DNA from: Bdellovibrionota bacterium
GTDB taxonomy: Bacteria > Bdellovibrionota_C > UBA2361 > OMII01
Direction of reading: 5' to 3'
NCBI GenBank assembly: GCA_044345405.1
Contig: JBIJBE010000003.1
Coordinates: forward strand, 8,427 to 72,426
DNA: 64,000 nt
Positions 11,510 to 11,833 of the stretch are shown here, piece by piece. A model generated the notes under the pieces. It did no database searches and was not told where the DNA came from. It saw only the letters and a list, made by a program, of their open reading frames with translations. The position numbers were made by a program, and so were the translations under genes. The number at the start of each line of letters is the position of its first letter. The first letter of the stretch is position 1.

Positions 11510-11833
11510 ATGTCACATATTCACGCTATTCGTTCTACTTCAGATGGGGCCTTCGGAGTGTCGGTAGGGGATTCACCGTTGATGCGCTCCGTGCCTGAGC
11601 CCCGCAATTCGCTCGGCTCCTGGGTTACAACAGCCGGGAACGCGGTGGCATCAACAACTTCCGCGCTTACCGGTATCGGGGCATCGATGATGGACGGGGC
11701 GAGTATTACTAATCTACTGAATCAGCAGATTCAGATTCAGCAAATCATGCAAACGACCTCGATGTTGTCGAACGTATACCGCTCTCAGCATGAGACGGAG
11801 ATGGCGCCGATTCGAAACATGCGAGTTGGATAG
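11510..11833 (+). CDS. Small protein (107 aa from the ATG at 11510) with a Gly/Ser/Thr-rich N-terminal half. It is a candidate T3SS needle or inner-rod (SctF/SctI-like) subunit.
   Basis: GGGAGA RBS. The C-terminus ...SMLSNVYRSQHETEMAPIRNMRVG resembles needle-protein C-termini (for example the ...YRNAQSNTVKV...IIQNFR tail of MxiH). It lies between sctQ and sctV. Confidence 0.3.
   Translation: MSHIHAIRSTSDGAFGVSVGDSPLMRSVPEPRNSLGSWVTTAGNAVASTTSALTGIGASMMDGASITNLLNQQIQIQQIMQTTSMLSNVYRSQHETEMAPIRNMRVG

Follow-up and report, generated by a model that had tools for sequence, protein, structure and literature searches.

We describe a small gene, here called X, in a 64,000-nucleotide stretch of DNA from an uncultured Bdellovibrionota bacterium (assembly GCA_044345405.1, contig JBIJBE010000003.1, positions 8,427 to 72,426 of the forward strand), hereafter the window, whose own numbering is used for all coordinates that name no other locus. 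Gene X is a real, strongly conserved gene in a cassette of type III secretion system (T3SS) genes, and its product probably belongs to the class of axial proteins that includes the needle subunit SctF, the inner-rod subunit SctI and FliE. The family of X appears to be new, large and unannotated; it is of the needle/inner-rod structural class and filed in neither SctF nor SctI, because it falls below the thresholds of the curated models of both and because the gene does not occupy the position of sctI. No description of the family, or of any T3SS in Bdellovibrionota, was found in the literature searched. Within the axial class, we tentatively favor for X the role of a proximal, universally required layer, the functional equivalent of SctI or FliE.

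Gene X and its family

An earlier note on this DNA had singled out a 107-residue open reading frame (ORF) with a good ribosome-binding site (RBS) between sctQ and sctV, and this much was borne out. The frame runs from ATG 11510 to the TAG ending at 11833, with AGGGAG 6 nucleotides upstream, and GGAG is kept at the RBS position in 12 relatives. A FliMN_C match in the protein encoded upstream and a FHIPEP match downstream confirm the position between sctQ and sctV; X starts 96 nucleotides past the end of the SctQ-like gene and ends 6 nucleotides ahead of the SctV gene. The C-terminus quoted in that note, SMLSNVYRSQHETEMAPIRNMRVG, is found in X as written. All 40 aligned homologues begin at the residue matching the Met of ATG 11510, which identifies it as the true start. 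The same alignment gives no support to the longer start GTG 11417 of a public JGI gene call (P0001; 11417-11833, 138 amino acids).

X is the fifth of eight genes in the cassette, whose order is a sigma-28-like factor, an SctJ lipoprotein, an ORF of about 70 amino acids, an SctQ-like protein, X, SctV, a TPR lipoprotein and an ORF of about 105 amino acids (Y). This order is invariant among homologues down to about 30% identity, as seen in the window (8686-14621) and in eight further neighborhood look-ups. The flanking genes vary between lineages, indicating that the cassette is a self-contained unit.

A word-indexed search for relatives of X returned 51 close clusters (45-99% identity, about 105-108 amino acids), all labeled 'hypothetical' and without a Pfam domain. 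Using the alignment of these clusters as the query, a full HMMER scan extended the family to at least 323 representatives at 50% identity (E <= 1e-3), 182 of them at E <= 1e-10, and a second search with a 123-sequence alignment again retrieved unnamed proteins only. A scan of metagenomes with a narrower family alignment found six contigs, mostly short. According to those records among 31 GTDB species genomes that name a lineage, the hosts are uncultured metagenome-assembled genomes classified as 'Bdellovibrionota', 'Oligoflexia', 'Deltaproteobacteria' or 'Pseudomonadota', many of them from lakes or rivers.

Family members are 92-112 amino acids long, with a mean of 101 across 123 diverse members. 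Six residues are invariant in this set (Q73, N88, H94, M98, R102 and N103), and L69, Q77, M80, S87, E95, R105, P29 and P31 are at least 90% conserved. The last two belong to an N-terminal motif comprising L24, R26, [FY]27, P29 (93%), E30 (82%) and P31 (96%). Cysteine occurs in only 2 of the 123 members, 17% of residues are charged, 33% are Gly, Ser, Thr or Ala (GSTA) and 12% are Gln or Asn, a composition that resembles SctF, SctI and FliE and differs from SctO and FliJ.

Resemblance to axial proteins

The case for axial-class membership combines rankings of X against known T3SS proteins in both directions, the register of its C-terminal helix, the conservation of positions that line the needle lumen, its predicted secondary structure, its composition and its fixed place in the cassette; no single score is significant alone. 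As a reference set we used 1601 stop-to-stop ORFs from the Shigella entry region, Yersinia pIB1, partial T3SS loci of Salmonella (pathogenicity island 1, SPI-1), Pantoea, Photobacterium and Aeromonas, the E. coli O157 locus of enterocyte effacement (LEE) and the flg and fli regions of E. coli K-12. When these were ranked by a profile hidden Markov model (HMM) of the X family, EscF came first (11.8 bits, E = 0.025), FliE second (8.5 bits), AscF third, MxiH sixth and two SctI proteins seventh and eighth. Six of the top nine ORFs were thus SctF, SctI or FliE (hypergeometric P = 1.8e-11), and 13 of the 15 small axial proteins of the reference loci fell within the top 45. Five helical control proteins scored 1.6 bits or less.

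In the reverse direction, we searched 9376 ORFs of environmental loci with HMMs built from 7 SctF, 7 SctI and 5 FliE sequences. The top 50 hits of these HMMs contained 10 (SctF), 16 (SctI) and 4 (FliE) of the 50 X ORFs present (P = 6e-14, 1e-25 and 1e-4). The SctF HMM had the highest area under the curve (AUC; 0.986 versus 0.971 and 0.962), and the top ten included six X ORFs with the SctI HMM versus two with the SctF HMM.

The family profile aligns to MxiH over 71 ungapped columns, from S13 to the terminal R83 of MxiH, pairing F39 of X with F19, Q73 with Q51, S87 N88 with S65 N66, K91 with K69, A99 with A77, I101 with I79, N103 with N81 and R105 with R83. A profile-profile score over 40 columns anchored at the C-terminus was +11.8 against SctF at the MxiH register and negative at the other 24 shifts (permutation z = 4.4; 0 of 20000 permutations reached the score). 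Against SctI no C-terminal register was positive, and the best against FliE was a marginal +1.6 over 29 columns at shift +11. An unconstrained best-diagonal score picked a register four residues off, as expected for heptad-like helices; the full-length C-anchored score is the informative one. The lumen of the PrgI needle is lined by K66, K69, D70, A73, A74, Q77, N78 and R80 (PMC6625726), which map to X residues 91, 94, 95, 98, 99, 102, 103 and 105. Six of these eight positions are among the 12 most conserved of the 45 helix-B columns (P = 0.0024).

The structure of X was predicted with AlphaFold from a 117-sequence alignment (mean predicted local distance difference test score, pLDDT, 66.7; predicted template modeling score, pTM, 0.33), and a shallower alignment gave the same outline. 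The earlier note had tied its proposal to a helical hairpin. Two helices are indeed predicted (A, residues 34-53, and B, residues 63-106), of which only helix B is confident, while their packing against each other is not. Solid-state nuclear magnetic resonance of MxiH found an extended segment at 2-11, a helix at L12-A38, a loop at 39-44 and a second helix at Q45-R83 (PMC3605151). When these helices are shifted by +22, their outer ends coincide with those that AlphaFold predicts for X, residue 34 for helix A and residue 106 for helix B; the turn is predicted a few residues earlier than that of MxiH, with helix A ending at 53 and not at 60. In the sequence alignment, helix A is matched to the first part of the MxiH helix L12-A38, and helix B runs along Q45-R83 with no gap. 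In helix B, conserved columns recur every three to four residues (Q73, Q77, M80, S84, S87/N88, K91, H94/E95, M98, R102/N103 and R105), tracing a single polar stripe over its full length.

The N-terminal half had been described in the earlier note as rich in Gly, Ser, Thr and Ala, low in complexity and atypical for SctF. The composition is as described: residues 1-62 are 50% GSTA, and residues 33-62 are 63% GSTA and 3% charged, compared with 25-37% GSTA and 21-32% charged in the N-terminal halves of classical SctF proteins. The region is not plain low complexity, however, as it holds a conserved motif and an amphipathic helix. Residues 1-23 are variable, Ser-rich and non-helical, and residues 24-33 carry the conserved L24-x-R26-[FY]27-x-P29-E30-P31-x-S33 just ahead of helix A. 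The hydrophobic columns of helix A (39, 42/43, 46, 49/50 and 53) are spaced like heptads, marking it as amphipathic.

Against membership in the axial class stand the conventional searches and part of the structure prediction. The window protein had no T3SS needle or rod match in Pfam or NCBIfam at E <= 0.1, and no threshold was reached. When the 123 members were scanned singly, one matched T3SS_needle_F (PF09392; E = 0.0049, below the gathering score) and one matched T3SS_SctI (NF038054; E = 0.0068). Single-sequence and profile searches against PDB sequences gave nothing relevant. In hhalign comparisons with reference alignments of 5-7 sequences, probabilities stayed below 3% and were not significant, the reference alignments being too shallow. 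The window's own sequence scored -0.1, 0.4 and 1.2 bits with the SctF, SctI and FliE HMMs, which is background. Helix A (pLDDT about 55) and the packing of the hairpin are predicted with low confidence. The similarity to SctF and SctI profiles anticipated by the earlier note therefore exists as a statistical one, seen in the ranking of the 1601 ORFs, the ungapped C-anchored MxiH alignment and the lift that SctF and SctI HMMs give to X ORFs, and not as a match above any curated threshold. The proposal of a divergent member of the needle or inner-rod class is supported at the level of the family profile.

Could the resemblance reflect helical composition, with X an operon passenger, small, helical and conserved, that is unrelated to secretion? 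Every individual score is below conventional significance, the best being E = 0.025 in a database of 1601 ORFs, and the reference HMMs also score coiled-coil T3SS substrates (LcrV, YopB and FliK) moderately. We nevertheless consider this explanation very improbable: the place of X between sctQ and sctV does not vary across homologues as distant as about 30% identity, the ungapped match is register-specific in a way that a composition effect does not produce, and the helical controls stayed at background.

It is also improbable that X is another kind of small helical T3SS-associated protein, such as an exported anti-sigma-28 factor (FlgM-like), an SctV-binding export regulator (SctX-like) or an SctO/FliJ stalk. 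The sigma-28-like factor in the cassette makes an exported anti-sigma factor plausible, and FlgM is similarly Cys-free and GSTA-rich; yet E. coli FlgM scored only 2.2 bits with the family profile, and none of the 123 members matched the FlgM model even at E <= 1. The small Yersinia genes yscX and yscY lie directly upstream of sctV, but YscX was absent among matches up to E = 50. EscO reached 7.4 bits, and no FliJ/SctO gene follows the ATPase gene in the related loci L039, L067 and L068; against a stalk, YscO, Spa13, EscO and FliJ are 29-38% charged and contain Cys, whereas the X family is 17% charged and essentially Cys-free. The polar stripe, extremely conserved to the very C-terminus, fits a channel-lining helix better, and a non-axial protein would leave unexplained why axial proteins crowd the head of the reference ranking. 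FlgM-, SctX-, SctO-, FliO- and SctS-like readings were each rejected on composition, hydrophobicity, motif position or the lack of a profile signal.

No better candidate for an axial protein was found in the 64-kb window. The one competitor was Y (14313-14621): the SctF HMM placed five Y ORFs in its top ten, yet we ruled Y out as the real needle. The match covers only helix 1 and the turn region of SctF (a local DPxL-like stretch) and has no counterpart of the long C-terminal helix. A reciprocal Y profile finds LcrV and EspA-type noise and no SctF, and Y is charged, with Cys in several members.

A promoter-like motif ahead of gene X

The spacer between sctQ and X cannot be aligned between relatives, except for the RBS and the motif ACGCAAC-N16-CGATA. 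We take CGATA to be the core of the sigma-28-class -10 element GCCGATAA; the -35-like half of the motif differs from TAAA. The motif recurs upstream of X in the related loci L001, L006-L009 and L011, with variant bases in L010, and is found in L020 only by a relaxed pattern. We infer that X is probably read from its own promoter by the sigma factor of the cassette.

A relaxed form, GCAAC-N17-CGATA, lies at 13758-13784, just past the sctV stop codon, and at least nine relatives have it at the corresponding position. It may mark a second promoter, or it may simply reflect coding constraint, the latter because the motif falls inside the part of the TPR lipoprotein ORF that codes for the signal peptide.

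A proximal role within the axial class

As a proximal layer, X would be exported, assembled and oriented as follows. Its Ser-rich, Cys-free and unstructured N-terminus would target it to the SctV-containing export gate, and exported copies would form a helical stack within the SctJ ring, on the far side of the SctRST gate. The C-terminal helix (63-106) would face inward, with the polar stripe of K91, H94, E95, M98, R102, N103 and R105 lining the conduit, and helix A (34-53) would pack outside. The R-[FY]-x-P-E-P segment ahead of helix A would make a fixed contact with a neighboring subunit or the basal body. In lineages without a second paralog, X may form the whole of a short conduit.

Our lean toward a rod-like protein draws on several features, among them the conserved N-terminal extension, which resembles the anchor of SctI. 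SctI proteins, of about 100-125 amino acids, bind the basal body through a non-helical N-terminal anchor that is followed by a hairpin (PMC10019453). X has the corresponding architecture: residues 1-33 are non-helical and contain the motif, and the predicted hairpin spans 34-106. At 92-112 amino acids, X proteins also exceed the 73-87 amino acids of the seven reference SctF sequences. The near lack of charge in helix A is easier to reconcile with a buried than with an exposed surface. The SctI HMM, with its six X ORFs in the top ten against two for SctF, and the lack of a secretin gene in the cassette neighborhoods searched point the same way. Needleless systems of the Myxococcus type keep SctI and have no SctF (PMC3459982).

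Two short metagenome contigs carry a second, divergent paralog, X2, directly after X, neither with a Pfam or NCBIfam match. In L055 (876-1187, plus strand), X2 has 92 amino acids and consists of the hairpin part only (37 bits to the family profile), with no PEP motif and the ending IIRNLRLG; in L054 (1701-2123, plus strand), it has 140 amino acids, a Lys/Ser-rich N-terminus and the ending VIRNMRS. The pair in L055 looks like the rod/needle dichotomy in miniature, which suggests that X, the universal and anchor-bearing copy, is the proximal one. A further possibility, speculative and in our view unlikely, is that X is the single undifferentiated axial protein of a third deep-branching T3SS lineage, neither flagellar nor classical injectisome, in a phylum of predators. 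It would then represent the ancestral protomer of the SctF/SctI type, with the hairpin of a needle and the anchor of a rod in one protein, read from its own sigma-28-type promoter by the sigma factor of the cassette; its duplication into X and X2 in a few lineages would replay the split into rod and needle.

Three observations count against the proximal, rod-like role. X lies downstream of sctJ with two genes between them, while each of the seven reference loci has sctI right before sctJ. SctF rather than SctI is favored by the C-terminal register and by the top individual match (EscF). Finally, tblastn detected no SctRSTU, SctC or SctD gene around the cassette at any of the loci. The queries were EscR/S/T/U/N/C/D, YscR/S/T/U/C/D and 27 E. 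coli flagellar proteins, and the target was about 800 kb of cassette neighborhoods, that is, 10 kb on either side of the cassette in about 50 loci, which is not a random genome sample.

One alternative is that X is the true needle filament, an SctF equivalent with an unusually long N-terminal segment that forms a length-controlled filament of many copies on the basal body. We regard this as possible, though somewhat unlikely. Three SctF proteins are in the top six of the reference ranking with EscF at its head, the SctF HMM has the highest AUC, and the whole MxiH protomer aligns ungapped with its terminal Arg in register, as neither SctI nor FliE does. The lumen-lining positions of SctF coincide with conserved columns of X, and the C-terminal helix of the X family aligns, up to the terminal Arg, with the conserved SctF helix whose polar residues line the lumen and which ends in ...I-x-N-F-R. 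A high-copy late subunit would be expected to have a strong RBS and a promoter of its own; X has the former and, in conserved form, a sigma-28-class promoter-like motif. A ruler may also be at hand: in L039 and L053 a FliK/SctP-type T3S4 gene (L039:13090-14802; Flg_hook 33 bits, above cut-off) lies beside an ATPase module, 3 kb from the cassette, and L067 has a weaker homologue near its ATPase gene, with 27.5% tblastn identity over 109 amino acids and a Flg_hook score of 14 bits, which is below cut-off. Ruler and ATPase may, however, serve a flagellum-like system, since FliG occurs in the same lineage. None of the seven reference SctF sequences is as long as X, and the conserved N-terminal motif of X points to a fixed partner rather than to the exposed, variable surface of a needle. 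The nearly uncharged helix A is unlike a needle exterior, X lacks the canonical P-(S/D)-(D/N)-P turn, and no secretin gene was found in the cassette neighborhoods to let a needle out. The hairpin-only X2 of L055 looks more filament-like than X does.

The cassette and the rest of the machine

The features of gene X and its cassette are listed in Table 1.

Table 1. Coordinates of gene X, its parts and the other genes of the cassette in the window.
Feature	Coordinates	Strand	Evidence and remarks
Cassette gene 1, FliA/WhiG-like sigma factor	8686..9615	+	Sigma70_r2/r4; TIGR02479 106 bits, below cut-off
Cassette gene 2, SctJ-type inner-membrane ring lipoprotein	9551..10390	+	YscJ_FliF 44 bits; TIGR02544 93 bits vs fliF 15 bits
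Cassette gene 3, acidic Cys-containing ORF of about 70 amino acids	10380..10592	+	No family match; same position in every locus, 65-85 amino acids
Cassette gene 4, SctQ-like, FliN-type C-terminal domain	10547..11413	+	FliMN_C 27.4 bits (cut-off 23.8); weak SpaO_YscQ match
Promoter-like motif ACGCAAC-N16-CGATA	11451..11478	+	31 nucleotides 5' of the ATG of X; one match in the window vs 0.03 expected
RBS AGGGAG	11498..11503	+	6 nucleotides 5' of the ATG; read directly
Gene X (cassette gene 5), 107 amino acids	11510..11833	+	ATG 11510, TAG 11831-11833; probable divergent SctF/SctI-class member
X, N-terminal extension, residues 1-33	11510..11608	+	Column conservation; no helix predicted
X, helix A, residues 34-53	11609..11668	+	AlphaFold, low confidence; amphipathic, small-residue-rich, almost uncharged
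X, turn, residues 54-62	11669..11695	+	Variable length, after conserved G55; Pro at position 64 in 25% of homologues
X, helix B, residues 63-106	11696..11827	+	AlphaFold block-mean pLDDT 88, 93 and 87 over residues 71-100
Cassette gene 6, SctV/FlhA-family export gate protein	11840..13753	+	FHIPEP 505 bits; TIGR01399 hrcV 453 bits, TIGR01398 FlhA 439 bits
Cassette gene 7, TPR lipoprotein	13734..14300	+	TPR families; MKKK...LLGC signal, lipobox LLGC; conserved position
Cassette gene 8 (Y), about 102 amino acids, basic N-terminus, acidic C-terminus	14313..14621	+	36 homologues at that position

The sigma factor gene is the first cassette gene in all loci; its coordinates are those of the maximal ORF, and its relatives have 217-277 amino acids. 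The likely start of the SctJ lipoprotein is Met28 at 9632, and its lipobox, read from the sequence, is LLAGC. The product of cassette gene 3 could be a piece of the sorting platform or a chaperone. Y combines a Lys-rich N-terminus with a conserved acidic C-terminal region ending in ...LDTDPxLKEEIL; that it is a regulator or chaperone, possibly an anti-sigma factor, is pure speculation.

Outside the cassette, we found no further T3SS gene in the window, and the cassette itself (8686-14621) contains none of SctRSTU, SctN, SctC and SctD. Besides the cassette's own SctJ, SctV and sigma-factor genes, the tblastn search matched an ATPase with a FliH/SctL-like partner and one true FliG (L067:4369-5370; TIGR00207 286 bits, cut-off 227). 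The ATPase/FliH module lies 3-7 kb from the cassette in L039 and L053 and also follows murJ in L067 and L068. The ATPase (L039:15815-17164) scores 453 bits with the SctN model and 442 bits with the FliI model, below the equivalog cut-offs, as are both the HrcV and the FlhA scores of SctV. Near-equal scores with flagellar and injectisome models, all below cut-off, indicate that these models cannot classify the machine and suggest a T3SS of a deep-branching type.

FliG, FlgE and FliK/SctP-type genes lie near a murJ-fliH-ATPase module in lineages that bear the cassette or are related to those that do. The FliG of L067 appears to be in the same genome as a copy of the cassette, and a true FlgE hook protein (L069:16992-18254) lies near a related ATPase. 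A further alternative is that X corresponds to FliE in a divergent machine of flagellar rather than injectisome type, the cassette being one part of a scattered flagellar gene set. Apart from these genes and the even-handed scores of SctV and the ATPase, it draws on the second place of E. coli FliE in the reference ranking, the alignment of the PEP region to the FliE segment LPQPTISF, the similar length, and the FliA-like sigma factor at the head of the cassette. We think it a poor prospect all the same. None of the 123 family members matches a FliE model, and the FliE HMM retrieves X least well of the three reverse HMMs. The marginal fit at shift +11 is the only positive C-terminal register, and X lacks the C-terminal FliE signature RNK..AYQ.IM.M. 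As its ring protein the cassette encodes an SctJ-type lipoprotein, with 93 bits to its own model against 15 for fliF, and not FliF. No flagellar rod, hook or filament genes and no FliPQR were found in the 800 kb of neighborhoods, bearing in mind the non-random sample. The tie of FlgE to the cassette consists only of ATPase similarity, and that of FliG is likewise indirect.

Further downstream in the window, a receiver domain fused to HisKA and without an ATPase domain (14655-15377) directly follows the cassette and is kept there in L001, L004 and L037. About 5 kb downstream of the cassette is a FlgO-family protein (PF17680; 19038-19937), which also occurs in L001, L004 and, close to the ATPase gene, L070. 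A 454-residue ORF at 25405-26769 fuses a response-regulator receiver (107 bits) to a full LpxC deacetylase (266 bits), an unusual combination that, judged from its domains, would place lipid A synthesis under phosphorelay control.

Relation to known systems

Compared with SctF (MxiH, PrgI, YscF and EscF; PF09392/TIGR02105), X shares two helices predicted as a hairpin, the first at low confidence, an ungapped C-terminal helix in which the lumen-lining positions are the most conserved, the absence of Cys, a similar overall composition and a gene within a T3SS cluster. It differs in being 20-30 residues longer at the N-terminus, where it carries R-[FY]-x-P-E-P, in lacking the P-(S/D)-(D/N)-P turn, in its small-residue-rich and nearly uncharged helix A, in two extra residues (V-G) past the terminal Arg, and in staying below curated thresholds. 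Its gene lies between sctQ and sctV and not beside sctI/sctJ or the sctE/sctG chaperone genes.

With SctI (MxiI, PrgJ, YscI and EscI; NF038054/PF17001), X has in common a length of about 100 amino acids and a non-helical N-terminal extension followed by a C-terminal hairpin. The conserved element in the extension could tether X to the basal body, X ORFs head the list of the SctI HMM, and X is the universally retained copy, as SctI is in the needleless Myxococcus systems. Unlike SctI, which ends in ...VETLLKS or ...VETLSKGG, X ends in ...A-x-I-R-N-x-R-V-G and has no positive register with it. X is not encoded directly ahead of sctJ, it has a longer hairpin (44 residues in helix B), and the curated thresholds are again not reached. 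FliE (PF02049/TIGR00205) shares with X a similar length, a Pro-x-Pro before the first helix of the hairpin and a place as second-best reference match, and it forms the first axial layer on the export gate, the role proposed here for X.

At the level of the whole system, the cassette resembles in spirit the basal, secretin-less systems of Myxococcus (the T3SS* of Myxococcus xanthus and the basal 'Myxo' non-flagellar T3SSs; Abby and Rocha, 2012; Herrou et al., 2025), a likeness seen in gene content and model scores. Both are found in groups known for predation, both have core genes with no linked secretin, tip or translocon and keep a small axial component, and the core proteins of both score equally with flagellar and injectisome models. 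The Bdellovibrionota system belongs to another phylum and is organized differently: a sigma-28-like factor heads its eight-gene cassette, and the genes for the ATPase and other components are located elsewhere. The 'needleless' T3SS* of Myxococcus acts in prey lysis (PMC12075869), and the basal Myxococcus systems have no detectable SctF (PMC3459982). In the view of Abby and Rocha (2012), the earliest non-flagellar T3SS had no secretin and bore an SctF-based periplasmic or extracellular structure.

The X family is a concrete candidate for the axial part of such early or atypical T3SSs, in another predator-rich phylum. Standard annotation misses this component, so 'needleless' calls made from profile searches alone may be unsafe. 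The alignment of the X family could seed a new profile for T3SS detection tools.

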